Assembly (NCBI RefSeq): GCF_964355755.1
Contig: NC_092672.1
Span: 6,882,001-6,946,000 of the forward strand
Direction: 5' to 3'
Origin: Antedon mediterranea
Lineage: Eukaryota; Animalia; Echinodermata
DNA length: 64,000 nt
The notes under the pieces are model-generated. The model ran no database searches. It was not told the origin of the DNA and was given only the letters and a program-made list of their open reading frames with translations. The stretch's first letter is position 1. Each line of letters starts with the position of its first letter. Below are positions 33,649 through 63,974 of the stretch, in pieces. Both the position numbers and the translations under genes were made by a program.

Positions 33649-36600
33649 TTAAGAATGGTATATTTTTTTAAAGAAACTAATGTATGTAATAAGTATACTC
33701 ACACAGGATAGGGAGGTAGCAAAATTATCACAAGTGAAAAAAGGATATATTTTGCTTTTGCACTTGCCTTTGTTTTTGCCCTTGTCCTTGCCCTTGCCTT
33801 TGTTTTTGCCCTTGTCTTTGCCTTTGTCCTTGTCTTTGTTCTTGCCTTTGCCTTTGTCATTATTTAAAGATGCCAATAAATATGTATTTTCGTTGCTGCC
33901 TACATATTGGATGTCTACATCTTCGCTGCATACATCTTCGCTGCCTACATCTTCGCTGCCTACACTTTCGCTGCATACATCTTCGCTGCATACATCTTCG
34001 CTGTCTTCATCTTGGCTGCCTACATCTTCGTTGCCTACACCTTCGCTGCATACATCTTCGCTGCATACATCTTCGCTGCCTACATCTTCGCTGCCTACAT
34101 CTTCGATGCCTACACTTTCGCTGCATACATCTTCGCTGCATACATCTTCGCTGTCTTCATCTTGGCTGCCTACATCTTTGCTGTCTACATCTTCGCTGTC
34201 TTCATCGCCCTCTTTATCGCCCTCTTTGTCGTTCCAATGGTGTATACAATCTAAGCATGCCTCAGAAATAAGACATAGCACCATAATAACATTGACGCTT
34301 ATAACTATACCTCCTATTAGAAAGAAAAAAATTGATCATCTAAACTAATTTTTGCTTTATCGTTTGGTAACTTTCTCTCGTTGTAAAATTGTAAAAAAAA
34401 AAAAAATAACTTTAATCAATTGGAAAAATAAAAATTACCTATTAGAGGAATGTGATTTCCCGATGCAGGAACATTCAAGGATTGTAAAATCACGAATAAA
34501 TTCTCTCCTACAAAAACAGATATCCCATATTTCAGTCTTCTTTTCGGTTTTACATGTGACATCTTGAACATAAAACACATTGAAAACGCACCAAAAAAGT
34601 ATGCATTTGCTAAAAACATATACCAAAAATTGTTCCGCCGTTGTAAATTGACCAACAGTTGTAACGTTGCATATGGAGACGTATTGCTTAATTTTGCTTG
34701 TATATCATGTATTGCCCAAATTTGATTGTTGTCATCACTGCTTATCTCTTGATCAAAATCATCATTAAAGTCAAGTTTGTTTCTAGGCTGTGTCAACGAA
34801 AAATCTAATTTACATTTTTGTTTGTCATCGGGATAGTACTTGAAGTTCAAAGGGCAATTCGTTTCAAATATACTTTTAGATGTAAGCTTCACACTGCCAT
34901 TGTAGCACACTTCAGCCGGATCAATCGACAGGAAAGATTTTTGATTCTGCCTATTTTAAAAATAAATATTGATACATTTATTACAAAATCGGAAAAAATA
35001 CTATAATATTTCAAAACTTGAATAAATGTAGGCATCGATTTTGTTTCGAATTCACTAGGCCTATATGTCAAGAAAAACCTGCGAGTTATCAATATAGAAA
35101 TAATACAAATTTAACATACGCTTGATGAAGTTTGGCATCTGGCGTCCAGATTGTCTCCTGTGATATTTGTAGACATTCAATTTTGGTCTTTTCATGGTCC
35201 CATGAAATAAATTCGTCCTTCCAATTCTGTAAAAATTAACAATAAAAGTGTAAGTTTATTAATATGTTCAATTCTATCATGCATCATACTATTTTAAAGG
35301 TTGTATATTCGTCTGCTACCAATAGAGGTAGACATTTCATGATGAAACACGTATAGAAATCGATTTGCATACCGCACACATCCGATAGGAATGATGATAC
35401 CGTATTTGGATAAAGTTAAAAGCCTACCACAGGGGCATGTGGCTCAAATATTTGGTGTCGAAGCCCCATCTACTATTTTAAAATCAAGGATACTGTAATA
35501 TAATGTTGGTTTGTTGAGGTACTAATGAAGACTCTGACTCGCTTGACTGAAAAAAATGGTATAAAATAATTTTTTTTTTTTATAATTTTTTTAAGAATAG
35601 ATAAGGAACGGAGGGTGTCACGAAACCTCAGACCACGAAAGCTCAGACCCCCTAAGACCTAAGATCACGAAAGCTAAGACCCAACACCTAAGATTACAAA
35701 TACTAAGATATACTACAGCTTAAAAACATTACTTGTTTATCCATACATAATTTTAAACACAGTAGGTTTCATTTATTACCATAAATATAATTTAATACTA
35801 CCGCAAAACATAGATAAACTCACATTATTTTCGCCCGTTGAGTAAATGTATATTTTTTCTTTACAACAAACAAATTTGACGGGTTGTTTGTTGGTATATA
35901 TTTACTCCATTGTGTTGGTTCAGAGGATGTTTTTCTTACGCACCTGCCTTTCTTGTATTTTGACTCCAAATTTGTTGAGTAACTTTATCCTGAACACCAC
36001 ACTTTAAAATTAGGACTTATAAGTACTTTCAGAAGGAGAAACACATAATAACAAATAAATAAATCCTTTAAATTGATGATTTTACAGATGTGTTTCTTGT
36101 ATACTGTAATGTAACTCCTCGAGCTCCCATGCTCAATGTTTTTGTTTCTATGGAGCGCCAAAAGAGCAACAATAATAGTACAAGTATAAAAACAGAAAGA
36201 AAACGAAACAAAAAAACTTATCATGATTTTTTAATTAAAATTTATTTGCCAGTATTTATTTCTTCGTACTTGCATGATTATACTATTATCATTACAATTT
36301 TAATTTTACATTGTTCCATCCACACTGTAGATGGACTCCACAGAGATTTTTGCTCTTTTGACGTTCCATAGAAACAAAAACATTGAACATGGCCCATGGG
36401 GTGGGTAGGCCTACTGTACTGTAGGCTAGTCATTTTTTGTGCGAGAAAAACGTCTGTAAAATCATCAATTTAAAAATGTATTTGTTACTTTTTATGTGAT
36501 TCTTTTTCATGAAAGTGCCAATTCTAAGGTGTGGTATTCAGAATAAATGTTAGGAGTTAAAATACAAGGCAGGTGCGAAAGATAAATATTTGTAATCTTA

Positions 36601-39600
36601 GGTGTTGGGTCTTAGCTTTCGTGATCTTAGGTCTTAGGGGGTCTGAGCTTTCGTGGTCTGAGGTTTCGTAACACCCAAGGAACGGACGATCAATGATGCT
36701 GTCAGTGAGGTGTGAAGTGTGTAGGTCTGCTTCTGAAGAAGTGGCTGTGAGATGTGTCTGGGCCCTTCTGAAACTTGGGAGTATATTGGCTCAGTTCATT
36801 TGCATAATGTCACTACGTAATCTGTGAGGGTAACGATTGGTCCTAAGTTGGTCCAGGGGTGTTTAAGTGGGAATGATTGATCTTATCTGGGGAGGTTACA
36901 ATGATGAATTGGACCTGTCGAATCTCTGCTTAAAACTGTCAGTATCTAATTGTTTTACGATGGGAACGGTCGCAAAGTTAAGCTAAGTGTTTTCTTTAGG
37001 GACTCTATTATAAACTAAGTGGTCATTAAAACATCTGGACAAACTCTCCTCTGGACTTTCTGGGTCAAGTTTGTGAACCTATTTGAATTCCGATACAAAG
37101 GTCAATTTCTTAATTATAAAAGTATATCATTATATTACAATACACTCCTGACCCCCACTTCAACATCGTGATGACCTGCCAAAATAAACACCAATATATA
37201 TATAATGTTAAATACAAAAACAGCACAACGCTTAGCCAGTACATCTGGAAGCTAAACGATGATAACATAAAGTATAACATTAAATGGCGAATAATAAAGA
37301 AGTGTAAACCATATTCCAATGTTAACAAACGGTGTAATCTATGCTTACAAGAGAAGTATTATATTATATGCAAGCCTGAAACCAGCTCACTTAACCATAG
37401 GAACGAATTAGTCAGTGCATGTAGACATAGGAGAAAGTTTCTACTAAAGCATCAGTAATTTAGATAATAAGAATTTGGTTAACAATAGACTGTCCAGGAA
37501 ATAGAGATGTGTTGTACTTGCTAATTAGCATACTATTGTTCACATAAACAGTTTGCCTTAAGACTTCATTATAGCTTTTTGTATTCACTTGTGACTATCA
37601 TTCAGAGCCAAGCACCTGAAGATTGAGTTCATACTCATGAAACAGCCTGTAGTGCAATAAAATGTTCAGTTGGTAATTTACTAGCGTCTTTCATTTATTT
37701 ATATTTGGCTCTACATTTTGTATCGAGCACTTTCGCTTTCATGGTCTGCGTTAAATTCACCACGATTTATATATATAAATCGTGGTGAATTTAACGCAGA
37801 CCATGAAAGCAAAAGTGCTCGATACAAAATGTAGAGCCAAATATAAATAAATGAAAGACGCTAGTAAATTACCAACTGAACATTTTATTGCACTACAGGC
37901 TGTTTCATGAGTATGAACTCAATCTTCAGGTGCTTGGCTCTGAATGATAGTCACAAGTGAATACAAAAAGCTATAATGAAGTCTTAAGGCAAACTGTTTA
38001 TGTGAACAATAGTATGCTAATTAGCAAGTACAACACATCTCTATTTCCTGGACAGTCTATTGTTAACCAAATTCTTATTATCTAAATTACTGATGCTTTA
38101 GTAGAAACTTTCTCCTATGTCTACATGCACTGACTAATTCGTTCCTATGGTTAAGTGAGCTGGTTTCAGGCTTGCATATAATATAATACTTCTCTTGTAA
38201 GCATAGATTACACCGTTTGTTAACATTTGAATATGGTTTACACTTCTTTATTATTCGCCATTTAATGTTATACTTTATGTTATCATCTTTTAGCTTCCAG
38301 ATGTACTGGCTAAGCGTTGTGCTGTTTTTGTATTTAACATTACGGAATGAACTATTGTGTGCGTTATATCTGCATTTAAATGTGTTTTCGGTTAGTCCGA
38401 CATATGTTTCAACTTTATCATCATCATTTGTTGTTACTGTAGCCTGATAAACAACACCACTGGTTAGGCATTTCCCATCTAATGGGCATTCATTTCGACA
38501 GTTGCATTGCTTGATGTTATCACAGGGCATATCATTACGTAATACATTTTTGTTGTGGGCCGATATTACAGACCCTATATTAGGCATACAACTATAGCTG
38601 ATTTTAATGGTGTTTCTATTAAATATTTTTCTTAGCTCATGGTTATGTGGAAAACATTCATCTACAGTCTTTAAGAACTCGTGCCCTATTTTGGTTTTCA
38701 CGTTGGCACTGTAAGGCGGGTTGAACCAGATGATATTTCTTTTCCTTGTCTTCTTCACGTTATTTTGTGCGCTGGTATTGGTCGGGTTGTACTTAAGATT
38801 GTGGTTGTATCCACTTTCATACAAGGCTTCTTGGTACGGTTTCTTTGATTCATTGAAAACAGCTTCATTCGAAGAAATGTTTGATAATCTTTTGTTTATG
38901 CCTTCAGGGATGTTCATAATTATTGATGCTGGATGATTACTTTTGCAATGAACATAGCGTGGTTTGTTGTTTTCCTTTAAATAAGGCTTATAGCTTCCAT
39001 CGTTGAGATTAAGCGTTACATCTAGGTAGTTTATAATTTTCTTATTCACTTCGATCGTTATCTTTAGATTATGTTCTTTGAATGTGCTGCAGAGATCTTT
39101 TTTTATTTTTTCAATAACATGAGGAGTTTCATTAAATGCCGCAAGTCCGTCATCCCTGTACAATCCTATGTTATTACCGTACTTGGGTTCCAGTTTGGCT
39201 AGCAGAAACAGACCTATTAACTCGCATGTTTCAGCACCGTCGTAGCTACCCATAGTAACATCGAATGTGGTGTTCCTTTTGCACCAAGCTGTCTCGTCGT
39301 TGAATAGTAGTGTATTCTTGGCTTTGATTACTATTTCCCTTTCTTCCTCTGTAATATCGGTGAATTTTTTAGCAAAGTTGAGGGCTTCATTGAGAAGGTC
39401 CAAAGTTATCGAAGGATAAAATTCTGTTACATCAAAGCATATGAACAGATGATTTTCCTTATCCCGGATGCCTTTAAACCATTCTATCATGTCGTTAGTA
39501 TTCCTCCACTGGTTAAGCTTGGTCTTACGTGCGATATGTTTGTTAACTCTTTCTAGGATGTGTTTACTTATCTTTCCTATCTCTGATTTTGAGGGGTTAA

Positions 39601-42600
39601 TTAGTCTGCAAGTCGGCTTGTTTACAAAATTTTCCTTATGGTCTTTCAGGGTTATAAAGGCATTACGTCTTCCAGTTGTTTCTATCCTGTCATCTAGCTG
39701 TATTTCTTAATCTCGTCTTTGGTTATACTATTTACAGAATCCGCCGGTGCTTTTTTGTATGTTTTCGTTATATTCTTTTGCAATAAGTCGTTATAATCAT
39801 TCGCGTCCATGCGGTAGAAGTTGTTTGATTTGTCTGCAGGTATAATTAGTTTGCTGTCCTGCTTTATCTTTCTCGCGTCTCTCTCTAGGTTTTTCTGAAA
39901 CGGGCATTTATTATCTTCAAACTTGATATTCTGTACTAAATTAAGCATTTTATCTTCAAATTCTCTAAGTTCTTGTACTGGAGGCGGGTTTCTTGAGGTC
40001 TTGAATTTAAACGTTTCTTTGGCGGATGTCGATACTGCTGGATTTAGGTAATGGAAGGCCTTCCATCGCATACGATTTAAAAACAGTTCTACCTTCTCGA
40101 TCATAAACTTCATGTATTCATTTGGTTGAGCCGTCGGTATGTTCTTAGTGGAATAACCAAGGTCGATACGTTCCATGTTGATCTGAACAGTGCTCAACAA
40201 AAGTAGGAGCAAAATATAAATCGTGGTGAATTTAACGCAGACCATGAAAGCGAAAGTGCTCGATACAAAATGTAGAGCCAAATATAAATAAATGAAAGAC
40301 GCTAGTAAATTACCAACTGAACATTTTATTGCACTACAGGCTGTTTCATGAGTATGAACTCAATCTTCAGGTGCTTGGCTCTGAATGATAGTCACAAGTG
40401 AATACAAAAAGCTATAATGAAGTCTTAAGGCAAACTGTTTATGTGAACAATAGTATGCTAATTAGCAAGTACAACACATCTCTATTTCCTGGACAGTCTA
40501 TTGTTAACCAAATTCTTATTATCTAAATTACTGATACTTTAGTAGAAACTTTCTCCTATGTCTACATGCACTGACTAATTCGTTCCTATGGTTAAGTGAG
40601 CTGGTTTCAGGCTTGCATATAATATAATACTTCTCTTGTAAGCATAGATTACACCGTTTGTTAACATTTGAATATGGTTTACACTTCTTTATTATTCGCC
40701 ATTTAATGTTATACTTTATGTTATCATCTTTTAGCTTCCAGAATATATATAAACACAAGAGGCAAAGAACATTAATTCTAAACCGCCCGGTGATATACTG
40801 AAATTTAATTAATTAATTTGAAACGATAAAGATGAGGAAATCTGTGAGAATGAGAAAAAGTCGCCCCAACCGAGACTCGAACTCGGACCGCCTGCTTGAT
40901 ATGCAGATGTCCTAACCATTAGACCACTGGGGCTTTCATGGTATTGTTCGAACTCGATTGGATAACGACTCTTTAACATTCTCGGCGTGGTACGGCGGAA
41001 CAGCACTAGTCCTCAGTTGTACGCACGCGCAACAGAGATCATATTGATACGCCCTCATCTTTCAGTATTTTTATTCACAAGGCGGGATCTCCGAAGAGAT
41101 ACTTTTATATATATAAACACAAGAGGCAAAGAACATTAATTCTAAACCGCCCGGTGATATACTGAAATTTAATTAATTAATTTGAAACGATAAAGATGAG
41201 GAAATCTGTGAGAATGAGAAAAAGTCGCCCCAACCGAGACTCGAACTCGGACCGCCTGCTTGATATGCAGATGTCCTAACCATTAGACCACTGGGGCTTT
41301 CATGGTATTGTTCGAACTCGATTGGATAACGACTCTTTAACATTCTCGGCGTGGTACGGCGGAACAGCACTAGTCCTCAGTTGTACGCACGCGCAACAGA
41401 GATCATATTGATACGCCCTCATCTTTCAGTATTTTTATTCACGAGGCGGGATCTCCGAAGAGATACTTTTATATATATAAACACAAGAGGCAAAGAACAT
41501 TAATTCTAAACCGCCCGGTGATATACTGAAATTTAATTAATTAATTTGAAACGATAAAGATGAGGAAATCTGTGAGAATGAGAAAAAGTCGCCCCAACCG
41601 AGACTCGAACTCGGACCGCCTGCTTGATATGCAGATGTCCTAACCATTAGACCACTGGGGCTTTCATGGTATTGTTCGAACTCGATTGGATAACGACTCT
41701 TTAACATTCTCGGCGTGGTACGGCGGAACAGCACTAGTCCTCAGTTGTACGCACGCGCAACAGAGATCATATTGATACGCCTTCATCTTTATATATATAT
41801 ACCACCGGCACACTACCACACAGGGCAGGGTCTGGGTGGGTGGGAAATAATATACAAATTGAATTGCGTCGTCTTCCATTTCAGGTGTGAATGTATAGAA
41901 ATCTAGCGTGCCACCGTAATTATTTTCCCTTAAAGACAGACATTAGGAATATGCATGTACATAACTGTGATGATTAATCATCTGAATGCGTTTCCATAAG
42001 AAAAAACAAAACAATACAAAAATAACTTACCATATTATACTTTCCCGATAATTTAAGGGTGTGTGTGAAGTCATTCTATAAGAAATTAACTAAATATAAT
42101 AATATAGTTTATAAAGGATATGTAACTCTTTTAAGGTCAAATTTATCTATTTACAATGGTCCTAAAAAGATATATAATATTTCGGTAATTTAATAATTTG
42201 ATGAGTAATTTAAAAGAAAAGCATATTTTTAAATTACATAATTATTAATTTGCTAACTGAATATAAAGAAATAGTAAGGTGCATGAAGTTTTGGAGTACT
42301 TTAAGATTTGTTTGTGTTTTGTTTTTACATAAAAGTAGGAGTAGGAGTAAATACTTTATTTACATCTTTATTGCACAATATTTTCGTGTTTATTTAATAT
42401 AACTAGGCCGTCAATGCATTAGATACATGTTTTTATATTTTAGGAAAAAAACAATTACTTTTGTAAAAGCATACCAGTTCTACAACTTCAAACGTTCCAA
42501 AGGTAACCAAAATCATAAGTGTTGTATTCGGATTAAGTACTGGCCGTGTAACAGGAGGTTGAGGGTAAGTTTCAGAAATATTTTTCATAAGCAGGGCCTC

Positions 42601-42887
42601 CATATTTGGATTCACTATCGGCTTAGCATCAGAGCTTACTAAAGATAGAAAGGCATTGCACATTGTTAGAAAACTACGCAAAATTCTACGACGGTAGTAC
42701 ACCATAAATAATATATTTTGCACAATCCATGTTTTATAATATAAGCACAAAATAGAACATTTTTCATTTCTGAGTACTGCCATGTACGTTATGATGCAGT
42801 AGATGTAAAGAGATGTTTAACAAATGTGGGGAAAAGAAGGTACTTACCAGTAGATAATGCTAGAATCAGTATTAATAGCAAAGACAT
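33649..42887 (-). CDS. Gene C: highly divergent nAChR-like (non-alpha) Cys-loop receptor subunit, about 510 aa, 6 exons
   Basis: Exons 42848-42887 ([13 protein letters not shown]), 42475-42638 (..VTRPVLNPN..), 42031-42075, 35120-35226 ([14 protein letters not shown]), 34439-34950 (Cys loop [16 protein letters not shown]1-M2) and 33649-34313 (M3, repeat-rich loop, M4). All are GT-AG and in frame, with no internal stop. Confidence 0.85.
35613..36676. mobile_element. Non-autonomous Mutator-like DNA transposon, copy 2 (opposite orientation), in gene C intron 3
   Basis: Same TIRs and body as 28821-29880. Perfect 10-bp TSD aaggaacgga. Confidence 0.9.
37612..37655 (+). ncRNA. Minimal type I hammerhead ribozyme in Penelope pLTR
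   Basis: gcac-CTGAAGA-t-tgagt(tcat)actca-t-GAAA-cagcct-GTA-gtgc: core boxes, stem I gcac/gtgc, stem II hairpin, short stem III, GUA cleavage triplet. Confidence 0.85.
37890..37933 (-). ncRNA. Minimal type I hammerhead ribozyme (pLTR copy 2)
   Basis: Exact reverse complement of 37612-37655. Confidence 0.85.
38087..40281 (-). CDS. Penelope-like RT/GIY-YIG polyprotein (single frameshift near 39700)
   Basis: ORFs 39694-40281 and 38087-39490 are joined by a shifted frame reading [44 protein letters not shown]. Confidence 0.88.
40331..40374 (-). ncRNA. Minimal type I hammerhead ribozyme (pLTR copy 3)
   Basis: Exact reverse complement of 37612-37655. Confidence 0.85.
40862..40933 (-). tRNA. tRNA-like gene, anticodon ATC (Asp-type); possibly repeat-derived
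   Basis: 72-nt cloverleaf: acceptor gccccag/ttggggc, D arm gtct..ggac, anticodon stem tctgc/gcagg with loop atATCaa, T arm ccgag-ttcgagt-ctcgg. Followed by TTTTT. Confidence 0.55.
41226..41297 (-). tRNA. tRNA-like gene copy 2 (ATC)
   Basis: Identical to 40862-40933. Confidence 0.55.
41590..41661 (-). tRNA. tRNA-like gene copy 3 (ATC)
   Basis: Identical to 40862-40933. Confidence 0.55.
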
Positions 42888-43829
42888 TGTTCACTGAAAA
42901 AAGAACAACGTTCGACAATGAAATTTAAATTGTGATTTAAGTTATTGAAACACTAGGTTTGAATAATTATCAAGACCATCTGATATACAAAAAGGTGATT
43001 TAATTTGTTAGGCAATACATTACTGTATGTACTACCGGTACCTAATGACGAGTGGTTTAATTACTATTGCATCGGATAAGTGAAAAATGTGACGCTAATT
43101 CTGCTATCCGATTCTTAGTGCTGTATCTCCACATACTGTACGACAATATTTGCCCAGTATAATTTCGTAATACAGCTGTGCATAACAATCATGTTGTGCC
43201 TGTATCATGTAAGAGGTTAGGTTAAGGGTTTAGGCCTAAAGTCTATGATACTAGAATATATAGATGAATGAAATTCGAAATAAAACCAGGTGAGGAATTA
43301 TGAAGGGATTTTAGGATAAAAATCGATTATGTGTAATAAAAAGCCAGTGAAGGTTTCTAATCACGGATGTGATATGTTCCTTAACCGGGCAGAGATTGAT
43401 TAAACGGGCAGAAGCATTTTGGAACACCCTGCAGTTTGTAAAATCCTTAACAGGCCAACCATAAAGCAATGAGAGTTACAACAATCTAGCCGAGATGAAA
43501 GCTTAAAGAAGCACAGTTGATAAAGGCACTAGGCCTGCGGGTAGCATTATTTTTTCCCCATTAGGTTAAGGCAGAAACTATAGAGGGCATACATATATAT
43601 CATGAATATTCATGATGCATGCCTGAGCTCATGACGTCATACTTGCAAAACCCACGTAACGTGCATAATCGGACTGGAGTTACTGTACTATTTTTCTCTC
43701 CATGTTGTTGTTAAAACAAAAGACCTGCAATTGTTGACGTTTTGTAAAAATAATTCATATAACTTTAAAAACATTAAACCAGGCCATTTCTTGTCTTATA
43801 TATCAAAAAGTGCTTTTACAATGCCTATT

Positions 43830-45190: not shown

Positions 45191-45741
45191 TATCTAATCT
45201 CTCGTTATGTATATAAGCATATTATGTGTTTACCTCACCCTCCCTTTATTAGAAACAGACGTAAACACGTGCTTCCATTGTCATACATGTGAGTATAATG
45301 ATACAAGGCAACTAAATACGTATAATCATCATAATAAAGGTATTTTATTCAGTTCACTTCACATTTGATCATATAAAATAATGTTTACTTTTTAAAAATC
45401 AGCCGCGGTATGATCAATCCAACTTTACTTTTGCTAACTAAAATGTATGGATACTTAATTGAAAGGTTTTATTAGTAAGAACAGCCACAATATAAGAAAT
45501 CTCTGGTCCATAGAAAGTAAATTTACGTATAAATTAACAAAAATAAATTGTACTGAAAGTATTTTTTTTTTCGATTTTGGAGATCTTTTTTTTATTACTG
45601 TTTATTGGTTTCTTGTCATTTTTATACAATATGGCAAAATAAATTAAATTAAACAAAAGAGATCAGCTATGAATAGCCATTTTATAAAAAAACATGTTAA
45701 GAAATCTAATACATATAAAACAGAACAGGAAAGGAAAATTT

Positions 45742-46060
45742 ATTCTAAACCGCCTCGTGATATACTGAAGTTTAATTAATTTGAAACGATAAGATGAGGA
45801 AATCTCCAATCGAGTTTGAAAGATACCATGAAAGCCCCAGTGGTTTAATTGTTAGGGCATCGGAAGGTTCCGGGTTCGAATCTCGGTTGAGGCGACTTTT
45901 TCTCATTCTCACAGATTTCCTAATCTTTTCATCGTTTCAAATTAATTAATTAAATTTCAGTATATCACCGGGCGGTTTGGAATGTATTCGGTGCCTGTGA
46001 TGTTTATAACTATATATAAATAACTATTCGGCTATCCCGCTTCGTAAATAAAATACTGAA
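45742..46060 (+). repeat. Diverged dispersed copy of the tRNA-containing 364-bp family, with an inverted duplication of its end
   Basis: ccatgaaagccccagtgg..ggttcgaatctcggttgaggcgacttttt, with the anticodon arm deleted. Flanked by inverted aaaccgcc..gtgatatactgaa arms. Confidence 0.8.
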
Positions 46061-47234
46061 TATAGCCCAACCTCTCTTCGAAATCGGATCGGACTCTCAG
46101 AGAATGAAGTCATTCACCGAAAACGGATTCCGGAGGAGTAGACTCATGAGCATTGCAGTTGACCTTTGACATTGCCATAATAAATGAACTCTTTAATTAC
46201 TCTCTTTGCAGAAGTGGTTGAAAGGTAGTAGTTTATTTTATTTGAAATGAGGTAACAAGTATACCTCTTACTGCCATCTTGTTGACATAGGCTATATATA
46301 AAATGGTCGCCGCTCAATAAAATCTTATCGTCAAGCGGAATGATTGGAAAAGACATAATACGCAAAGATTTTATTAGACTCAAGCACACATCATAAAGCA
46401 TGACTTGTGTGCGACTCGGTTAATACGGTACATACATACTGCCGTCTCGTTGACATGACATGGAAAAGACAATACCCAAAGATTTTTCAAAAGCGCTCAT
46501 AAATATATTTATTAATTGTACAAGTTTAAATATTTGATCTCTGGCTGCCATAAAAAGCATGACTTGTGTCAACCTCCTTCCCCCACCTCAGTTAAACCAA
46601 TACACTTCTTGTTGCCGTATTTTGACATATTATACTGCATTTAAAAGGGTTGCCGCTTAATAAAATCGATAATCTCATCTTATCTTCAAGTGGAATACAT
46701 GGAAAGGTCACAGTACATAAGTATTGTTATAGTCTCAAGAGCGCTCATATACTACACAGCCATTGTACTAGTGTAAAGATAATAAAATTTAAGGGTTCGA
46801 AACGGAAACGTTTTAGAAGTCACCGAACCCACAAAAAAAAAAAAAAATTAAAAAGTAAATATAGAAATAAGAATGGCAACCACACCTTATATTCATTTAA
46901 AATAAAAATGTTCCTGCCTACGCATTTTGTTTTTTTTTATATTATTAGGTCAGTTTGTGATGGTTGTGAGCATCTTATTGATCCACAGCCTTAAAACTCA
47001 TTTTATTGGGAATTACACATACAAATAAAGTATCTATTTAAACATATCTCCTTTTCTAAATATACGTTTTTTTAAATTTCCCATTTCAATGCGGTTTTTA
47101 AAATAACATCTTTTATGATTTAGAATTTTTTTTTCTAGGTCTTCGATAGATCGTCTCAGTTTTACCCTCATTTTGGCAGACAGTCGTTCAACTGCGAATA
47201 AATAGTCACTAAGCTTTAGAAAAGGAATAGAAAT

Positions 47235-47406
47235 ACTGATAGATGAGGGCGTATCAATTTGATCTCTGGTGCGCGAGCGTTCAATTAAGTGACTAATGCT
47301 ATTCTGCTGTATACCACGCCGAGAATGTTAAAGAGTCGCTCGAGTTTGAACTATACAATGAAAGCCCCACGGTTGTCTAATGGTTAGGACATCTTCATAT
47401 CAAGCA
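47235..47406 (+). repeat. Truncated copy of the tRNA-containing repeat family
   Basis: gatgagggcgtatcaat..ccacgccgagaatgttaaagagtcg..ctaatggttaggacatcttcatatcaagca matches the 364-bp unit. Confidence 0.8.
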
Positions 47407-47656: not shown

Positions 47657-50600
47657 GCCCACCACAATAAAGACGACCGGACACGTAGGACTCAAGTAGA
47701 ATAAGATCTTTATTCGTTAAAACCAAATATCATAATAACATAACAACCAGCGGCCATAGAGCAGAGGGTCAACGCAGCTAGGGGCGCTAGACTGGCGTAA
47801 TCATTTTTTTCTCTTTTCAAAAACACAAAAGTTAACAAAAGAAAAGAAAGCAAAGCAAAATCACTCAAAATTCCGAGGGCAAGCATGGGAAACCTAAAAT
47901 ATATAATATGTATAATACGTTATAAATCAAGAACATAGTCATACTAGGAAGTCTGGGTGAACGTGTGGATGTGCGATGAGACGACTGTGCTGGAACTTCC
48001 ATTGGTGATTCTGCCGAGTTCTGTATGAAAGGTGGCTTGTCGTTCACCTCATTAGGAGAGGCTGAAAGTGTTGACGGTACATCGGGTGAAGGAAATGGAG
48101 ACGGATCAATTGTGAAATCAGGCTCCTCATCAGAGGTGTCGCAGTGGCGTTGTGAGGCTGGTGTGGGAGGATGGTGAACGTCAGTCGGTAAAGTAAAACA
48201 CTCTGATTTCTTTACACGATAAGTAGCGCTTCTCAATTGTGAGTGCGTAAACCTTCGGGCGTTGCACCACTTTCCATCTACAGAAACAACGAGATAGCGA
48301 TCTCGTGCACAGGTCTTGCGACGATCTGTCCACAGGTAGACTAAATCACCAACCGTAATAGAAACGTCAGGTGCTGCACACGCGACGGGTGCCTTAGAAT
48401 TTTTACTGTGGGCGTGATTAGAGGCTCTGGGGTGCTGTTGGCTGATAATCAACTTGCGGTCAGAAATAGGGATTTGGTCATGAGTGAACTGATCCCGCTG
48501 TGTCCACATTTCTCGAGACGACAATCCTTGAGTTCGGATACGGGAGTTAAGACGTGATGTGGCAACAGCAAGCACTGTTGGTTAGATGGGACCGCCACCA
48601 GGCTCTTGCCGAGTAATTCTGCTAATTCATTCATTCATTCATGCTTATCGCCTGACTTTATTTACTTTAGGCCTCTGGCCCCTAGTAATTAACAAAATAA
48701 TAATTACATTGAAAATTAAAGCAATTTATGGTCACAAGATAAATGAATTAATTAATTTCGTTCTCTAAGCAAAACATATATCTTAACTTATAAGCATGAT
48801 AAATATATTTAGATAGATTATCAATAATTATTGGATCCTGTGATGACATTAAACGGCAGAATTTAAAAGTATTTGAATTCGCGTACAGCTTTCTCTCCAA
48901 CCGGGTTTTTTGTTGGTCTGGACACTCGGAGTGGATGGCTAGCCAAGCTGGCCGACTGGTAAACGGGAGTTTGGGGTCTCCAGTAATGAAATCACATATC
49001 GATGAACGTAGTACCGTTGACTCTATCGCGCCGTTGACGAATTAGCAAACTTGACAGTTGTCAACTGAGCAGGGTGGAGCGTTACGACTAGCAAAGTTGG
49101 ATGGAACGTTGGCTGAGCCTGCCAAGTGCTGAATACCTGCTAGCAGTGGACAGGAAGGTGGACACACGGGGACTGACTGAGAATTCTCCCTGCATAGCTT
49201 TTCGAGCGCTTGAACGCATGGCTTACTGTTAGTTAGGACACGTGTGTTATGTCGAGACTGAATAATAAAAGGGCTAAAATGTTTAACAGCTGCCGCGATA
49301 GCCAAAGCTTCGATCTCGCAGGGTAGCCATGCTACCTGACGTGCACGGAGTTTGACACTAAAAAAACCGGCTAACTGTAGTTCATTCACGAGTAACGTAT
49401 AAGATTGCGCCTAGACCATGACTTTTAACAGCACCATCCGTAATGATCCACAGTTGGTCATCGGGATGAGGTAAAACTATGACTTTGTGTGAGTCAAGTG
49501 CGTTCTGTGCTATTGCAAATGCTTCGTGTAAGGCATCGTACCAATGTATTGTATCTTTGGACTGTAAGCCAGCTATGGCTTCTTTCAGTGGAGCGATGAA
49601 AGATGGGCTATGAGGCAAAACGCGTGCTAACACCCTGATAAAGGAGCGTAAACCTCTTACCGTCGGTGGTGGAGTGCATGCCTTTAACGTTGAAATACGA
49701 TGAGTATTTGCGCGAATAGACCTTAGGGACCAGGTCCACCCACCCAAGAATGGTTGTGGTTCGTGGACAAATCACCGTTTTGCTAGCAGACAATCGCAGA
49801 CCACACTTGTAAATGCATTGGAGTAGACGCCGCCAATTGTAAATTAACTCCTCAAAACTGTCCCCTCCACAATAAAGGTCACCCGCAAGCTTTGCTACTA
49901 CTCCCTCCTTAATCAAATCCCCCAGTACCCGACAAGTCAGCTTTTCGAGGGCGGTCTCTGAACCAGGCATACCCATGGCACACCGGACATAAATTCTGAC
50001 ACCTCGAAATGGTGTGGCAACGCCGCAGTACTTCATAGAACCGCGAGACAAAGGAATCTGGTAAAAGGCCTTTGTGAGGTCAGTAGTAATTAAGTGCTTC
50101 CATTTTGCGATATTACGTAGAACGGAGTTGACATCCGGCATAAGGGAGGGTTGGGGTCTCGCATATTGTCCGACCTCGGCGAATGCTGTAACCAGACGGT
50201 AGCCACCACTCTCTTTTTGACAAGGAAAGATGGGTTAAAATATTCGACTTGGACACCGACGTCCTCGGGGCGAACAAATACTTCGTCAAGCTCATCAAAT
50301 TTGTCCTGTAGCTCAACTAGTTTATCTCTGGAGTATATACTGAGGAATTCGACCCTTCCTCTGAAAAGGCTGTACAGGTCCCATGTTAACAACAGCCTGG
50401 AATGGGCCAACATAGCCGTAATCATAGGATCGAAAAAAACATCGTATTCAGTAAGAATGGATTGGAATTGGGATTTAACATTGTGGGAGGATATGGCCTA
50501 GATCTAGCTTGATATAATCTGAAAACGCGACAGAGGAAGAAGGCTTACAGGGCTTAGGTGGTGACTTTTGGGGAATAGCGTTTTTGTCCGATAATGGCAC

Positions 50601-53045
50601 AAAGGTGGGTTTGGACCTGGCAAAAATGTTCATGTCATTTGATAACCTGAGGTGTGTCAGTAGAGTTTGGAATACGTATCCTTCCCGCAACACTAGAGAC
50701 CAAGTCAAACTTTGGCCAGGTTCGAGGAAACGTACCCTTACTATGTGGTTCGAGAGCAAACACGTCATCTTGTTGGATAAAGTCAGACGGAATGGTTACC
50801 TCGATAAATTCTCCCGGCCATACAGTGGTCTCCCCTTCAGGAGCACGAAGCACACAAGCACGGCGAACCATGTTATGGTGAAAGTCCTCTACCTTGGAAC
50901 CATAGATGTACGTGGTACCGTCACCCAATTTAACTTCCCGCTTCGCGGGTCGGAGGGCGATGTAATTTAGCTCCATAAAAGGAGTTCCGGCAAGAATGTC
51001 GACGTCAAGTTTCTCGACAACGAGACCCTCAAATTTGAATTCCCTGTCGTCCCTTGTGAGAATAATTGTTGTTTCGCCTACGACCGAAAGTGGAGAAGAT
51101 CCGTCAGCCTGATGGGCAGACTGAGAGCTACTTTTAATGGTAGCGCCAAGGGCAGTGGCAGCAGTAAAGGCAATCATGTTTCCTGTAGCCCCACTGTCGA
51201 GTGTGATTCTGGCTGTGTGGTGTTGGTGAAATGTGTCAAGGTATGGGGACTGGCGAACTTGGACTCGTAAACCTGTCGAGGGTGCACTATTATAACCAGG
51301 CTCATCCGAGGTGTTATCATTGATGATCCCAACGATTTGTCGGGCCTTAGCCATGTATTTCCGGTCTGACTCGGACAAAAGAGGACATTGAGGACTTGTG
51401 TTGAAAAAACTGTGATCGGAAAAATACCTTTACTTAACTAACATAGGAAAGCCTTTGTGGATGAGGGAGAGCCAGGTAAGAACCATCAAATTTTCCAACG
51501 AGGGTGAAAGTTCTTCATCCTATTGTATTTGGGCATCATGGTGGGAAATACCTTGACGTAGTAAATTATCATGGACGAAAGCAACTAAACGCTGATAGAG
51601 ATCTTCCGGCCGTTCGATATCTTGTAAATGTATATCAGCAAAATCAATAAAATGGGTGCCGGTTGACTGGAATCCATAATGCAGTCGGATAGTTTTCCAA
51701 ATTTGAGAAAGTGAAGAGGAGCTTTTAACAATGGTATTCTGGGAAATTATAGGGCAACAATTAGCGATCTGACCGAGCATGAGTTCTAGGATAGTTAGTT
51801 TTTGTTGGGCGGTATGACGACGTGCAACAGGTACATCCTCATTGTCGTCAGTTAAGCCGCGAAGGGGAGATGCCTTGGTTTTGGAACGCCAAACAGAACC
51901 ATCTAGGAGAAATGGGGAAAAATTAGCGTCCAACGAGAGGGTGTAGATAAGGTTTTGTTTCCAGTTTTCAAAGGTATTTATAGTTTCATTCTTGGTTAAG
52001 CACCATTGCTTGGGTGCTCTAGTACCGGCCATGGTATGAAATGTAAACAGATGTCTAGGTGTTTTCAGTTGCACGTGTAAAGCAACAGCCGATCGGCACA
52101 TGTGAAAGCGTAGAGTATGTGATGATCTGCTAGCTCGATTTGTTCGGCTAGGCCTACTGTACAGTGCCCACCACAATAAAGACACCGGACACGTAGGACT
52201 CAAGTAGAATAAGATCTTTATTCGTTAAAACCAAATATCATAATAACATAACAACCAGCGGCCATATATAGGACAGTGCATTTCGGCCGCCACTCATTTC
52301 GGCCGCCGGTTATGGAACGCCCAAATTCATGAAACTCCAAAAAGGACAAAATATGGCATGACCATTTCCGCCGCCAGGTATGGCGCGCCAAATTGAAATA
52401 GTCAGAAATAACTCATTAACTGTACAGTATTACAGTTTAAAAAAATAACTTTATCAAATCTATGGAACGCCACAGAGAACTATGGTCATTTAAACTAGAG
52501 ATCAGTTGTGCAATGGGCTAAATACATTTTGTTTTTGCCGTAAGCATAGATTTAGTTTAGTTAAGTTATATTAGTTACGGTATTTTACCGTTTGAATATT
52601 TTGGTCAAAATGAATATTGATTTAATGTTTATTTTTTTATTTATTTTACAAGTCCCGAAGATGCGTGTGCTTTGTAAAAATGTGTTTCTTTTAATATGAA
52701 TCAAGTCAAGTGTTTTTGACTGGCACATAAAAAAACCTTCAGCATCACCTCCTTCTTATTAAAAAAATATCATTAATATTCACTGTTTCTGGAATTGAAG
52801 ACCGCCGATTCGGCTTAATAATACAGTATTTAGGCCTAGTAAAATATTAACATTTTAACACACATGGCGTGTCATACATATTTAAGAATAATTACAATTC
52901 TGGCGGCCGAAATTAACAATACATATTTAGTCCTTTTTGGCGTTTCATGAATTCCATAACCGGCGGCCGAAATGACTGGCGGCCGAAATGATCAGACACC
53001 ATAGAGCAGAGGGTCAACCCAGCTAGGGGGCGCTAGACTGGCGCA
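47657..53045 (-). mobile_element. Decayed Ty3/Gypsy LTR retrotransposon
   Basis: Order gag (52032-51520), protease (LDSGA, 51378-50635), RT ([14 protein letters not shown]; YxDD decayed to AGD), RNase H (ITDGA, EIEALAI), integrase C-terminal remnant (48630-47865). LTR sequence is shared by 47657-47799 and 52166-52265 plus 53000-53045. A polypurine tract lies at about 47803-47818. Many frameshifts. Confidence 0.92.
52271..53000. mobile_element. MITE inserted in the right-hand (5') LTR of the Gypsy element
   Basis: Long inverted termini with repeated catttcggccgcc / ggcggccgaaatg. It splits the LTR sequence gcc|atagagcagagggtc, which is contiguous in the left LTR. Confidence 0.85.
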
Positions 53046-54002: not shown

Positions 54003-57000
54003 CTATACATAAAATGACATTAGTGTTATAAAAATAGTGACCGCAGACAATATGAACATTACAAAGTCCGACACTTCAATTATTTTTTCTATTTTTTTGT
54101 TTTCTGTGTCTTCCAAATATTCGCATAGACGCTCAACCTTGTCTGAACAGGTGCCTGAACAGCACTTCGTCGCTTCTTCTTCTGACTCGTTTTCTTTGCC
54201 TTGTTTTTTACATTTGATACATGGTACCCAGACGAGAACTAATTGTATAACACGATATTTACTTAATTCATATATGAGACAGATAGTGCTGATCAGAATA
54301 ACTGCCAAAAAGAATCTTCCTGTTGGTAGAAAAAGATATGAAATATTTAGCATAATTTAAAAGGCAACATTTTTTTTGTAATTAGTTTATTTTTCTTTAA
54401 TTAACCGGGTAATTGCATATTAATTAAGAATATATAAATGATTAAGCTTTTGTGCATTCGATATTACAGATTACGGATTCTTCTAATAATATGTTTTCCA
54501 CTCATGTGAAACGCAATAATTGTATTTAAATTGCTTTGTCATTTGTCTTGTCAAACATATAATACCTTTACCAACCACATTTGTTTGTCGGTTCATAATA
54601 ATGATGATAGTGATGGCGATGGCGATGGTGATGATGATAGTGATGGCGATGGCGATGGCGATGGTGATGGTGATGGTGATGGCGATGGCGATGACGACCA
54701 ACCACATTTTTTTGTCGGTTCATGATGATGATGGTGCTGATGGTGATACTGATGGCGATGACGACCAACCACATTTTTTTGTCGGTTCATGGTGATGATG
54801 GTGATACTGATGGCGATGACGACCAACCACATTTTTTTGTCGGTTCATGATGATGATGGTGATGATGGTGATAGTGATGGCGATGACGACCAACCACATT
54901 TGTTTGTCGGTTCATGATGATGATGGTGATGATTATGGTGATGGTGATGGCGATGGCGATGGCGATGACGACCAACCACATTTCTTTGTCGATTCATGAT
55001 GATGATGGTGATGATTATGGTGATGGTGATGGTGATGGCGATGGCGATGACGACCAACCACATTTCTTTGTCGATTCATGATGATGATGGTGATGATTAT
55101 GGTGATGGTGATGGCGATGGCGATGACGACCAACCACATTTGTTTGTCGGTTCATGATGATGATGGTGATGATTATGGTGATGGTGATGGCGATGGCGAT
55201 GGCGATGGCGATGACGACCAACCACATTTCTTTGTCGATTCATGATGATGATGGTGATGATTATGGTGATGGTGATGGCGATGGCGATGACGACCAACCA
55301 CATTTGTTTGTCGGTTCATGATGATGATGGTGATGATTATGGTGATGGTGATGGCGATGACGATGGCGATGACGACCAACCACATTTGTTTTGTCGGTTC
55401 ATGATGGTGATGGTGATGATTGTGCTGATGGTGATGGCGATGCCGATGGCGATGACGACCAACCACATTTGTTTGTCGGTTCATGATGATGATGGTGATG
55501 ATTGTGGTGATGGCGATGGCGATGACGACCAACCACATTTGTTTGTCGGTTCATGATGATGATGGTGATGATTATGGTGATGGTGATGGCGATGACAATG
55601 GCGATGATGACCAACCACATTTGTTTGTCGGTTTGTGATGATGATGGCAATGACGATGGCGATGACGATGACGATGATAAAATACTGTACTTAGTGTAAT
55701 TTGACTTGAGCCTCATCTTATACACCTTAGCATTTAGGTATGGAATACAGTATAATTACCAATTTGTGGAATTTGATCGCCGACGGGTGGTAATGACAGG
55801 AAGATTAACTGGTTAAAAACAATCACCGCAAGCACCACAGTTATCCCATACGATATTCTTTCTCCAGGCTCAGGTACAAGGAACATAAGACAGATGAGAA
55901 AAGAACACATATAGTAAGGAATCAAATAGAATGTCTTTTGAAATTCATGTCGTCGTTGCAAATGTATCCAAAACTGCAAAGATGAATAAGAACTGAACGA
56001 ATAATTGTTAACTGTTCGTGCTTCCTTAACGCCCATAAGTTTCCAAATTCCATTCTCAACAAATTGCTGGTTTTGATCAAAACTATTTGCAATTGGATAA
56101 AAGTCAAGTTTGTTTATATCATGTGTCCAAGAGATAAATTCTAATACGCATGTTTGTTCGTCTTTCGGATAGTATTTGATGTTTATATGACAAAATGTTT
56201 TAAATAGGGATATGCTGTAAAGCCTCACGCTGCCGTTGTAACATACAGAAACAGGAACGTCTGACATGAAATATTTGTGATCTCTGTCTGTGCTGAAAAA
56301 AGAAACAGATTAACATGAATGTATTGATACTACCGATAATGTCAAATAAAAATGCAATCAATGAGGTTTATTGGATCACCTTTATTTGAATGCCGAAATA
56401 ACACATGCAGTGTATTATATATCAAATGTAGTATATTGCCTGAAAATGTGCTATTACAACCACTAAATGTACTAGTATTTTTATCAATTATTCTATTTAA
56501 TGAATTTTCATTCATTATTTTCTCGTGTCACTACAGTATATTCAAACGTTAACCAAATGAAAATAGCAAACAATTATTATGGATTTCAGGTAACTTGTTA
56601 TAAATGTGCTACTATATGTATTGTTTATTGTAGAAATAAAATCAAATCAAAACAGAGATTATGGATGCATATCAACACTAAAACTTAAATCATGGACCTA
56701 TAAAGTTATTATAATATTCTTCTTTATTGTATCAAACAAAACAATTTCAATACAAAAGGTCAAGGTATAGCCGAAGCTAATCAAGCTTGGTACCTTTTAT
56801 CTTAACTAACTTAAGCTACGAAATTAACAAATAAATAACAGAACTTAAAAGAAAATGAAAATTTGATAACGTCAAAAACAAAACAAAAAATTTTGAATAA
56901 TAAATAAATAACATAACATAAAGTGCTGTATGTACTGTATTGTAATAAACAAAACGATATCAGTTCAATAGATAATATTTGATGAATGAATGAATTATAA

Positions 57001-58041
57001 GTCCATGCTTAAATTAACTATTTTAATGACCTGGAAATAAACTGTATTTCATTTCTTATTTAATGTCGTTTTATTTTTATTTTTCACACTTATTTCTTCC
57101 CGCCAAAAAAATCCTTATTTTTTTGTTTTTAAATTAAAAATGTATTATTACTGTTGTTATTGTTGTTGCTACATTTATTATGTTAATGTTAACAACCTTT
57201 ACTTACTTCTGTAAAAGGACAATATCAGGTATCCATATTTTGTCCTGCTTCATTTGTATGCATTCAATGCCAGTATCTGTGATGTTCCAAGAGATAAATT
57301 CGTCTTGCCATTCCTGTGTTGGAACAATATGATTGTATACAATTTTGATTTATAACAATAGTTTTTACCGTAAGGCTGTAAATGTGGGGGAATAACCTGT
57401 GTCTTACAGTCTAACTGAGCTGAATTGCACACAGGTGAGGACGACAGACACTAAATTTCTTCTTGCCTAAGGGTCCCTTTGTGTAGAGTGCTGCCACCAA
57501 ACGGCGCTCATTTGTCGGTCCACAATAATATATTATCATTTCTATCTTCTCCGTTATCTACCAAAGACATGTTAATGATTAAAATAAAAGCTTACCAAAG
57601 TAATCCAGCCCGATATGTCAAGTATTTGCAAGGCGTCGTCCTATAAAAAACAAACAGTAGCTTAAATTAGATATTAACATTTATGCTGATAGTATGACAT
57701 ACATCTAGAATTATATAAACATATTTGCAGACTTTTCATGGTTTGTACAATAAACATGTTTTACTTGAAATAAAATAATAGTTTTAATATTATAAGCACA
57801 TTCTGTTGAAAATCTGTTGCATATATTTGTTGTGTCAAACTTTATTTTATCTTTTTAGAAATAAATAGTGTACTTACTAGTTTAATAACTTGAGTTAATA
57901 CAAAGCTAGATGTAATATTTGTAGTTGTGTTCGTATCTAATACTGGACGAGTTGTAGGTGGGCTAAGATACGAATCTGATATAGCTTGCACAAGATAAGC
58001 CTTTATACTTGGATTCACATATTCTACTGTCTCGGCACTTA
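54003..58041 (-). CDS. Gene D: divergent nAChR-like (non-alpha) Cys-loop receptor subunit, exons 2-6 (signal-peptide exon not located)
   Basis: Exons 57878-58041, 57596-57640 (DDALQILDISGWITL), 57207-57313 (EWQDEFISW..IWIPDIVLLQ), 55760-56292 (Cys loop CHINIKYYPKDEQTC, GERISYGITVVL) and 54003-54319 (M3-M4) splice in frame. Confidence 0.9.
54570..55680. repeat. Compound minisatellite in gene D intron 5: about 14 copies of a ~27-bp core separated by variable (GAT/GGC/GGT)n
   Basis: gaccaaccacatt(tg)tttgtcggttcat recurs at about 60-130 bp spacing. Confidence 0.92.
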
Positions 58042-58649
58042 CTGAAAGTCAGATATTATCCGAAAAAATATTACTTTTTAACATTATTATCTAATTGTAA
58101 TTCCATCATCTTTGTGAAAGATACGAATAAAGCATTCACACTTACAATTGGCTAAACGCATCAAACTATTTTATGTTAATTGTAAATGATTAGTGATACT
58201 ATAGAAAAGTAACGTGTTTGGTATTTCCTAGCCTTTGTGGATAAAATCCATATCGATATGAATTATTATAACTCACCAACACTTGTTATAACAGTTATAA
58301 GAAGAATTGGTAGAATGTGCATAGAATCCATAATCAATCGTTGCATACCGTTGCTGACTTCAAACAAGCATATACCCTTAACATAACAATGATATTTCAA
58401 AATTAATTTTATTTAATGAAAATTGTATATAGTAGTAGAGATCAACTTCAACATGGGACGACTAACTCTCCAACAACCTAGCAACCAGTAGGCCTACTAG
58501 TCTTTATTGATCATAAGATTACAACACAATGGTTTTTGACAATATTTTGTATTGAATCATGGATTATTCATTTCATCACTTCTTAAAATGCACTACAACA
58601 ATTATGTTCACTTGAAGTAGTCTTTAAAACAGTGTAGTAATAATGCTCC

Positions 58650-60100
58650 TGGTACCTACTATACAACCGATTAAGTAGAAAGTACAGCTTCTGTTGTATC
58701 TAAGATATTTGAAACATTGTTAATCAATTATTTTGGAGATACCCTTAAGTCAGGGGATCACCAGTTTGCTTTTAAAAGTCAACACTCAACGGATACTTGT
58801 ATCTTTGTTTTTAAGCAGATAGTGGATTACTATAATAGGAATGGGAGCCCCGTATTTACTTGTTTTCTCGACGCGAGTAAAGCGTTCGACCGAGTCAATC
58901 ACTGGTCACTGTACAGGCAATTAATTATGAGAGAAACAAACATTATTGCTATTAGACTTCTAAAATCTTGGTATGAGAATCAACGATTTTTTGTTAGATG
59001 GGGTAACTCTATGTCTTCAGGTTAATTTAAAGTTACCAATGGCGTTAGACAGGGTGGTGTTATGTCTCCTCTGCTATATAGTGTTTACATTGACAATTTA
59101 AACAGTATGCTTAGTGATTGTAATTTTGGCTGTGAGCTCAATAATACAAAGTTCAACAACTTAAGTTATGCAGATGACATGGTGTTACTTGCGCCCTCTT
59201 TAGATGCCCTCCAAAAGATGGTTAACATATGTGAGGATTTTGCTAATAACTTTGATGTATTATATAATTCAAAAAAAATCAATTTGCATGTGTTTTTGCC
59301 CTAGAAAAAGAAAACTGAATTGTAATTATTTTACTGTTCTATGTGGTAAAGAACTAAATTACGTTCAATCCACTACCTACCTTGGTTGTGTTATCAGCAA
59401 TGATACTATAGGGACGAACTGGATATTAAAAGGCAATATCGATCATTATGTATTAGAGGTAACTCTCTTTGTAGAAAATTTAGTAAATGCTCAACAGATG
59501 TTAAGATTACTTTGTTTAAATCATACTGTATTAGTATGTATTGTGCGGCCTTATGGTGCGATTTTAATGTAAAAACTATATGAAGTCATTACAGGTCTGT
59601 TATAATAACGCACTTAGAAAGATTTTAAGACGCTCAAGGAGCTGTAGTGCTAGTGCTATGTTTGTTGATAACCATGTTCCCTCCTTCTATGAGTACATTC
59701 GGAAATCAATTTTTTGTTTCAAAACAAAAATTGAAAAAGCTGTAATACTTTAATTACATGTGTTTTTTCTCGTATTCCTAAAGATTCAAAGTTGCATAGA
59801 AAATGGATAGAACTTTTGTATATATTATAATCTCATGTATACTTTTACGTGTGTTAACTAGTATGGCCATAATAATGTGTTGTTTTGTAAACTATAGTAA
59901 TCAATAATATAATAATGTCTACAGTCTACATCCAATAAATCCCAAAACATAATCCACATGTATTTTAAGAGGCACTATATGCCAACAAATAATTATTAGT
60001 CCTCTCTCCATGACGGTTGTCACATAATGCTTTGTATTATTTTTTATTGTATTTATATGTTTCATATGGACAGTTTGTCTGAAATAAAGTTGAATTGAAA
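58650..60100 (+). mobile_element. 5'-truncated, decayed non-LTR retrotransposon (RTE-X-like RT)
   Basis: QFAFK, CFLDASKAFDRVNH, GVRQGGVMSPLLYSVYID and YADDMVLL across broken frames. Ends in aataaa plus a ttgaa repeat tail. Confidence 0.88.
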
Positions 60101-63100: not shown

Positions 63101-63125
63101 ATACAAAATAATAAACATCTTAAGC

Positions 63126-63974
63126 TTATATAAATATTCCATTAAATACACCAACAGTAACAATTGACACGCAACACATGACTCCGTCAAGAAAACCATT
63201 CAATCCACGACCTTCCCACTCTTTTCTTTCGTTTGTGAAATTATGCTCCGCAAAAACACGTGTTTTTATTCCATCTAAGATGAGACACACCGTGCTTAAC
63301 CCGATGACTGCTAAAAAATACTTTCCTGTATAACAAGAAAAATACATTATTAGAAATGATGATTACAATTAAGGTGGTCATTTATTTATAATCTATAAAT
63401 TTGAGTACATAAATAAAATAATAATAAACTACCTATTTCAGGAATGTTGTCTCCAACTGGAGGTAGAGACAAGACGATTAACTGACTGAAGACAATCTGC
63501 GCAAGTAACACGGTTATTCCATAAGACACTCTTTCTCCAGATTCGTACGGTATGAGAAACATTACACTCATGAGAAATGAGCAAAAATAATATGGAATAA
63601 GATAAAAATGTTTTTGAAATTCGTTCCTTCGTTGTAAAGTGATCGAATATTGTAATGATGCATATGTACTAGACGAATAACGATGCACAGTTCCATTTCC
63701 TTGAACACCGTTTTCAGGCAACTTCCAAATTTCATTCTCAACAAATTCATTCTTTTGATCAACATCAGTTGGAATCGGAATAAAGACAAGTTTGCTGACA
63801 TCATAAGTCCAAGAGATAAATTCCAATACACACGTTTGACGGTCATTAGGATAATTCGTGATATCAATATGACAAAATGTTTGAAGTATAGCTACACTGG
63901 AAAGCCTCGCGCTGCCGTTGTAACATACTTTTACAGGAACACTTTGCATAAAATACGTGTGATCTTTATCTATA
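63126..63974 (-). CDS. Gene E: divergent nAChR-like (non-alpha) subunit, last two exons (5' part lies beyond the right edge)
   Basis: Exon 63433-63974 (Cys loop CHIDITNYPNDRQTC, FISWTY, SGERVSYGITVLL) and exon 63126-63325 (M3, very short loop, M4, stop). Close paralog of gene D. Confidence 0.9.

Follow-up and report, generated by a model that had tools for sequence, protein, structure and literature searches.

The window analysed here, a 64-kb stretch of AT-rich animal DNA from the crinoid Antedon mediterranea (contig NC_092672.1, positions 6,882,001 to 6,946,000), carries five Cys-loop receptor subunit genes, all on the minus strand and in the order E, D, C, B, A, whereby C, D and E lie upstream of the two alpha-type genes B and A. 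By their residues and tree position, C, D and E represent a lineage-restricted tandem radiation of subunits derived from nicotinic acetylcholine receptors (nAChRs), common to at least two crinoid species. The explanation that fits best, put forward tentatively and at somewhat less than even confidence, is that D and E are subunits of orphan cation channels whose amine pocket has been retuned; the gene structure, the residues, the selection and the tree are the directly observed parts of it.

Gene structure of C, D and E

Exon positions were taken from translations and splice signals, and the models were joined by coordinates. All splice junctions were AG/GT (GT-AG introns) with matching phases, and there were no internal stops, which bears out a preliminary description of the locus as three co-oriented open-frame paralogs beside a canonical alpha subunit, B. 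Gene D (54003..58331, minus strand) is complete, encodes 406 amino acids in six exons (58331-58277, 58041-57878, 57640-57596, 57313-57207, 56292-55760 and 54319-54003) and comprises a signal peptide, a ligand-binding domain without the vicinal cysteine pair (Cys-Cys) and four hydrophobic helices. Its first five exons match P0001 of the Antedon mediterranea RefSeq set, the large exon at 100% identity; the last exon is the model of this analysis, in phase and 56–58% like the start of the last exon of E over 24–25 amino acids. Gene E is represented by its 3' half (63126..63974, minus strand; exons 63974-63433 and 63325-63126), with the 5' exons past the window end. It corresponds to the 379-aa RefSeq protein P0002, with 100% identity across all 246 amino acids in the window and the predicted last splice junction present in P0002 as well, and is a subunit without Cys-Cys whose M2 is of the cation type and whose M3-M4 loop is nearly absent.

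Gene C (33649..42887, minus strand), the most divergent of the three, is complete at 510 amino acids and likewise has six exons (42887-42848, 42638-42475, 42075-42031, 35226-35120, 34950-34439 and 34313-33649). Its M3-M4 loop (33751-34231) is inflated by repeats, namely an in-frame acidic 15-bp repeat (20.8 copies, 33895-34206) and basic 6-, 18- and 30-bp repeats; the charged loop of P0029 from the crinoid Anneissia japonica is duplicated too. A duplicate of the M4-coding end of C (79% over 76 bases) lies at 33481-33556, just 3' of the stop codon.

C and D have five introns each and share an exon-size signature of 164/45/107 bp, versus 149/45/110 bp in A and B, as had been read before. In B, C, D and E the last exon spans M3 to the stop, leaving no intron before the fourth transmembrane helix (TM4). 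The Cys-x13-Cys loop, the beta-sandwich ectodomain and the four transmembrane helices of the Cys-loop family were all found. The Pfam ligand-binding domain was detected in all four large exons tested (E-values 1.9e-24 to 6.5e-10) and the Pfam transmembrane family in three of them, not in C, whose M1, M2 and M4 are weakly hydrophobic in hydropathy. Protein searches returned D and E as the only Antedon proteins, which is weak evidence for the absence of further paralogs; the paralog count given for Antedon covers the 64-kb window.

Ligand pocket and pore

Pocket positions were mapped via alignment to alpha7 and multiple alignments, using the conventional alpha7 numbering of the aromatic box (W55, Y93, W149, Y188, Y195). 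The Cys-Cys of loop C is absent from C, D, E and all 12 Anneissia relatives and present in B, which is canonical, with the full aromatic box. D and E retain W55, W149, Y188 and Y195, four of the five box residues, and have Leu in place of Y93 of loop A; two further loop C residues are gone together with the Cys-Cys, and Arg occupies loop E position 117. In mammalian alpha10, an Arg at this position has been proposed to impair acetylcholine binding (PMC8634148). Gene C keeps Y195 alone, the loop A Tyr, the loop B and loop D Trp and the first loop C Tyr being lost.

The loop readings of the preliminary description proved right: loop C YNCCPETY has become YSFSSY in D, YSSSTY in E and a truncated NTSPY in C; loop A LYNN has become LLQN in D and LHQA in C; and the alignment shows C without the loop B and loop D Trp. 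Its summary of these changes as an eroded acetylcholine site applies in part. Erosion is heavy in C and the Cys-Cys is gone in all three, but D and E keep most of the aromatics.

The pattern extends over the clade. Besides D and E, the 11 Anneissia proteins that cover the position all have the loop B Trp, and all 12 of that species share with D and E the first loop C Tyr (14 of the 15 clade members). The second loop C position is aromatic in all 15. Since human beta4 lacks a Tyr at the first loop C position in the alignment, the fact that the clade retains it suggests a principal face that still works. The Anneissia proteins have no Cys-Cys, yet a full-length loop C carrying both aromatics; their loop A Tyr is retained in three of 12, replaced by Asp or Glu in five, and unreliable or missing in four partial models. 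A gradient of the aromatic box results, from five residues in Anneissia P0161 to four in D and E and one in C, with intact alpha relatives adjoining.

An acidic ring together with Leu at 9' is typical of cation channels. D and E retain both, the ring as G-E-R/K, and the pore of B is a canonical cation pore. In C, a run of basic residues lies at the inner end of M2, and Val stands at 9'.

Structure was predicted for P0002 (gene E) only, as a single chain. The AlphaFold model, built on a 92-row alignment, had a mean pLDDT of 89.5 and a pTM of 0.80, with helices at 312-344 and 349-378 and M3 and M4 linked by about four residues. Its best structural matches were alpha7, the muscle nAChR and 5-HT3A (Foldseek E 1.8e-33), and comparison with nAChR/5-HT3 structures gave Z 29.9 and rmsd 2.4 over 336 aligned residues. 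Chemotactile receptor chains were absent among the 60 sequence matches and the fold matches listed, which is not evidence against kinship. The ESM Atlas returned generic family rows alone for P0002 and P0042 (generic Mollusca/Chordata clusters for the latter).

Relatives and phylogeny

A profile search of 1.84 billion representatives, together with a named search, gave 13 matches including the 12 Anneissia japonica proteins. No pair of these is more than 79% identical, and 11 of the 12 apparently lie on one scaffold, to judge by a common longest contig of 2,279,018 bp.

Gene A was too short for the first tree (FastTree), which held 191 units drawn from 161 of 162 proteins. A careful tree of 54 rows combined the 34-row FastTree clade with six further Anneissia units and 14 hand-picked outgroup units; it did not include P0166, P0167, P0001, gene A or any other unit. 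Among the named rows was fish alpha4b, but not named beta subunits, chemotactile receptors or Holothuria sequences. Approximately unbiased (AU) tests used quick trees of a 24-row subset.

In the careful tree, C, D and E formed one clade (support 100/97), sister to a clade of 11 Anneissia rows (99/94), and the two joined on a long stem (100/100); the end branch of C had a length of 2.17. This crinoid clade is nested in a 40-row group (100/99) with B, P0032, P0016 and unnamed proteins. Seventeen rows of the group bear the Cys-Cys (16 by pattern and one from the table), and those without are the 14 of the crinoid clade and nine others, so that loss of the pair is common and repeated there. The crinoid clade is marked by a one-codon deletion, a short intracellular loop and a private extra cysteine pair, found in 10 of 199 units, every one of them within the clade. 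In three N-truncated members just the second Cys is seen, and a single Cys occurs in one unit outside the clade. The pair presumably forms a disulfide.

Origin of C, D and E from B, modelled as a single clade with B, was rejected (AU p=1e-5), which makes B a cousin rather than the parent. A sister position of the whole clade to the A/B type was not rejected (p=0.13), and an ancestor of the alpha type, akin to A and B, is likely. The adjacent progenitor proposed in the preliminary description thus fails for B itself, whereas the A/B type as sister is compatible with the tests; the lineage-specific radiation proposed alongside it is indeed tandem, nAChR-derived and without Cys-Cys, but not confined to Antedon. 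A placement of C outside D/E plus Anneissia was marginally rejected (p=0.045), C being a long branch.

Neuronal and muscle alpha and beta genes share an intron before TM4 (PMC6354393). The lack of this intron, together with a position, within the 54 rows of the careful tree, among the Cys-Cys-bearing A/B types and away from fish alpha4b, argues against orthology with neuronal or muscle beta subunits, in line with the first reading.

Selection and turnover

Over 185 shared codons, dN/dS was 0.17 for D-E, 0.35 for D-C and 0.62 for E-C, with pN/pS bootstrap ranges of 0.24-0.42, 0.47-0.72 and 0.59-0.96, respectively; the D-E ectodomain is under purifying selection (0.25/0.86). Pairwise dS was 0.9-1.5, near saturation. 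Under simulated neutral drift, frames were still open in 2 of 2000 runs at 0.2 substitutions per site and in 0 of 2000 at 0.3. Since neutral drift closes such frames well below the observed divergence, the open frames are beyond chance expectation, and C, D and E have been under selection for most of their history, C far more loosely. Indeed, the frame of C and its five intron boundaries are intact after a dS of about 1.

A dead E-like second exon, overlooked in the first reading, lies at about 28410-28255 (minus strand) between C and B. It contains an in-frame stop and a frameshift, has lost its donor site and matches P0002 with 79% and 70% amino acid identity in two frames (E 3e-9); no matching downstream exons were found within the window. 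Its presence shows the past loss of a further copy and hence birth-and-death turnover.

Functional interpretation

According to the preferred explanation, the clade would go back to a relative of A and B of the alpha type. It would have lost the loop C disulfide and gained the private cysteine pair, which is predicted to link two adjacent strands in the vicinity of loop E. Tandem duplication and loss since then would have proceeded, probably separately, in Antedon and Anneissia. D and E, intact and under purifying selection, would form pentameric cation channels, with assembly and ion selectivity as predictions. Their ligand is likely a small polar amine or zwitterion, acetylcholine being either no ligand or a much weaker one; the ligand class, too, is predicted. 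C, their rapidly evolving sibling, would probably not bind a ligand of this kind and would serve as a modifier subunit or be decaying. Recent loss of function of C alone is possible but doubtful.

Several observations weigh against this explanation. Anneissia P0161, with all five aromatics, could well bind acetylcholine, and the third paralog of a sea-cucumber tandem set, Hl-07243, responds to acetylcholine at 10 µM (PMC10120082). True beta subunits, as exemplified by beta4, also have the Trp of loop B and the final Tyr of loop C, and loop C of D and E is no longer than that of beta4, as would fit an accessory role. The public model of D (P0001) reads into intron 4 and stops there, without M3-M4, and no protein record matching C was found in the protein searches (best 40%). 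Moreover, nesting of C, D and E with three Anneissia genes was not rejected (AU p=0.068), so that the separate expansion in the two species is probable rather than firm.

The beta-like features lead to the closest rival, a somewhat unlikely one: C, D and E would be convergent accessory subunits that co-assemble with A and B, provide the complementary face and tune acetylcholine-gated channels. This would account for D and E keeping the loop D Trp while losing the Cys-Cys and the loop A Tyr, for the beta4-like short loop C, for a cation pore compatible with that of B, and for A and B being direct neighbours on the same strand. However, the first loop C Tyr is conserved across nearly the whole clade, and Arg117 of D and E lies on the complementary face and is the change to which the defect of this face in rat alpha10 has been linked. 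The lack of the pre-TM4 intron also separates the genes from neuronal and muscle beta genes, and 12 Anneissia paralogs would be many for structural partners.

A role as peripheral chemoreceptors on the tube feet, pinnules or cirri, sensing external molecules in convergence on the cephalopod chemotactile receptors, is unlikely. The tandem, species-sorted expansion with a pseudogene relic, the loss of the Cys-Cys and an intracellular loop that is very short in E and P0165 would all suit it, as would the 14 non-aromatic pocket columns of the Anneissia array, whose variability exceeds that of the remaining ectodomain (ratio 0.74, a value reached by 16 of 500 random column sets; 0.67 among the six full-length proteins, with 4 of 500). 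Taken alone, such hypervariability seemed significant, with 24 of 2000 random sets reaching it, but as a positive test it fails, since it lies within the range of 11 control clades (0.65-1.20), Cys-Cys-bearing ones reaching 0.65-0.80; D versus E gave 0.93. The D-E ectodomain is conserved by purifying selection, and chemotactile receptors combine a hydrophobic pocket with intronless genes, whereas the crinoid genes carry five introns and their pocket changes are polar or charged. In addition, the best-studied echinoderm tandem ligand-gated ion channels (LGICs) are specific to an internal organ. The chemosensory function suggested in the preliminary description thus found no support, given a pocket variability within the controls, intron-rich genes and an amine-type aromatic cage. 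Quite unlikely, too, is the fuller version, a crinoid-specific ionotropic chemoreceptor family from a nicotinic alpha ancestor, with a private ectodomain disulfide, expansion per species and C as an anion-leaning or inhibitory partner.

That C, D and E are redundant duplicates drifting to loss with no distinct function, C furthest, is improbable: the nearby dead exon, the lack of a C protein record and the looseness of C itself (E-C dN/dS, weak hydrophobicity, repeat expansions) would agree with it, but the low D-E dN/dS, the intact frame and boundaries of C and retention of the clade in two species speak against it.

Neighbouring genes and repeats

Gene B (14690..25961, minus strand; exons 23597-23449, 21789-21745, 16968-16859, 16461-15920 and 15222-14690) is complete once the signal exon 25961-25910 is included, and falls outside the C/D/E clade; its closest relative is the unnamed P0032 (70% identity). 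Gene A (2077..5944, minus strand) shows its three N-terminal exons, with the remainder past the window start, and is classed as alpha-type by its closest relative, the unnamed, Cys-Cys-bearing P0016 (67%). In P0016, whose model is partly duplicated, the loop A Tyr has become His, and A itself retains the Tyr; the Cys-Cys-bearing A type may thus be drifting at the acetylcholine site.

Intron 3 of C holds a retroelement that by eye resembles the Penelope type (37203-40742; open reading frames 40359-39697 and 39706-38090, minus strand), whose 539-aa frame had no Pfam match. A 1140-bp near-perfect palindrome (37203-38342, 99.5%) and a 529-bp copy (40214-40742, >99%) indicate that the insertion is very young. 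It is followed at 40743-41790 by 2.9 copies of a 364-bp unit (99% identical), each with a tRNA-Asp(ATC)-like sequence; the unit, with diverged copies at 45805-46060 and 47225-47406, is probably a tRNA-derived short interspersed element (SINE). A frameshifted element resembling a long terminal repeat (LTR) retrotransposon, with protease-like and reverse-transcriptase pieces, lies between C and D (47870-52220). Intron 4 of D contains an 82-bp array of 10.3 copies with related 58- and 125-bp arrays (54600-55680), which may explain why the public D model ends before the last exon. The 3' half of C is flanked by an inverted pair of 1.1-kb repeats (35613-36676 and 28821-29880, 88%), and retroelement fragments occur at 58675-59750 (RVT_1, intron 1 region upstream of D), 30168-31163 (GIY-YIG) and 32179-32634 (zf-RVT).

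Significance and comparison with known systems

Tandem nAChR expansions without Cys-Cys are already known from bivalves, annelids, cephalopods and non-crinoid echinoderms, and the pattern as such is unsurprising. The new element is a clearly marked crinoid clade with graded pocket loss and intact alpha relatives adjoining, a natural series for how a neurotransmitter site gets retuned, in a feather star that is being established as a laboratory model (PMC11336682). Sensory expression, if true, would make it a major finding: the conversion of a neurotransmitter receptor to a chemoreceptor in a deuterostome, convergent on octopus. In the literature searched, where most subscription journals are missing, no paper on crinoid nAChR-like genes or on this clade was found.

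The nearest known system is a highly expanded Ambulacraria-specific LGIC group with sea-cucumber, urchin, starfish and hemichordate members that includes the tandem Hl-07241/2/3 of the sea cucumber Holothuria leucospilota, specific to the internal Cuvierian organ (PMC10120082). The crinoid genes resemble it in being nAChR-like tandem duplicates of an echinoderm, and two of the three Holothuria paralogs are unresponsive to 1 mM acetylcholine (PMC10120082). The 40-row clade holding A-E, whose non-crinoid members are unnamed, is probably the counterpart of this group, and the crinoid clade thus probably belongs to the published echinoderm/hemichordate LGIC expansion; no crinoid labels were seen in the tree of that paper, and 'Anneissia' has no occurrences in its four supplementary files, one of them in shortened form (PMC10120082). 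The bivalve and annelid expansions are likewise lineage-specific tandem arrays, those of bivalves mostly of non-alpha type (only 33 of 132 oyster genes are alpha-type; PMC6896357). Unlike the crinoid genes, with their many introns and private cysteine pair, these are protostome and mostly intron-poor retrocopies (PMC6896357). Among annelid receptors, Alpo4 of Alvinella lacks the Cys-Cys, retains the aromatics, gives no acetylcholine response and is an orphan (PMC10338036); by analogy, it and the Holothuria channels may serve as precedent for acetylcholine-unresponsive relatives.

With vertebrate beta2/beta4, the clade shares the missing Cys-Cys, the short loop C and three retained aromatics, the Trp of loops B and D and the last Tyr of loop C; unlike them, it nests with the alpha-type A/B, has no pre-TM4 intron and retains the first loop C Tyr. 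With the cephalopod chemotactile receptors CRT1/CRB1, which show a hydrophobic pocket, positive selection and sensory expression (PMC11526382; PMC13174522; bioRxiv 10.1101/2025.03.03.641191), it shares derivation from nAChRs, expansion and the missing canonical acetylcholine-site motifs. The chemotactile receptors are intronless (PMC13174522), which C and D are not, and D and E combine an aromatic amine cage with purifying selection. None of C, D and E has the Cys-Cys and complete aromatic box of an alpha subunit. Overall, the crinoid clade is definable and in birth-and-death turnover, fitting neither alpha subunits nor beta orthologues and, in gene structure, departing from the chemotactile receptors.

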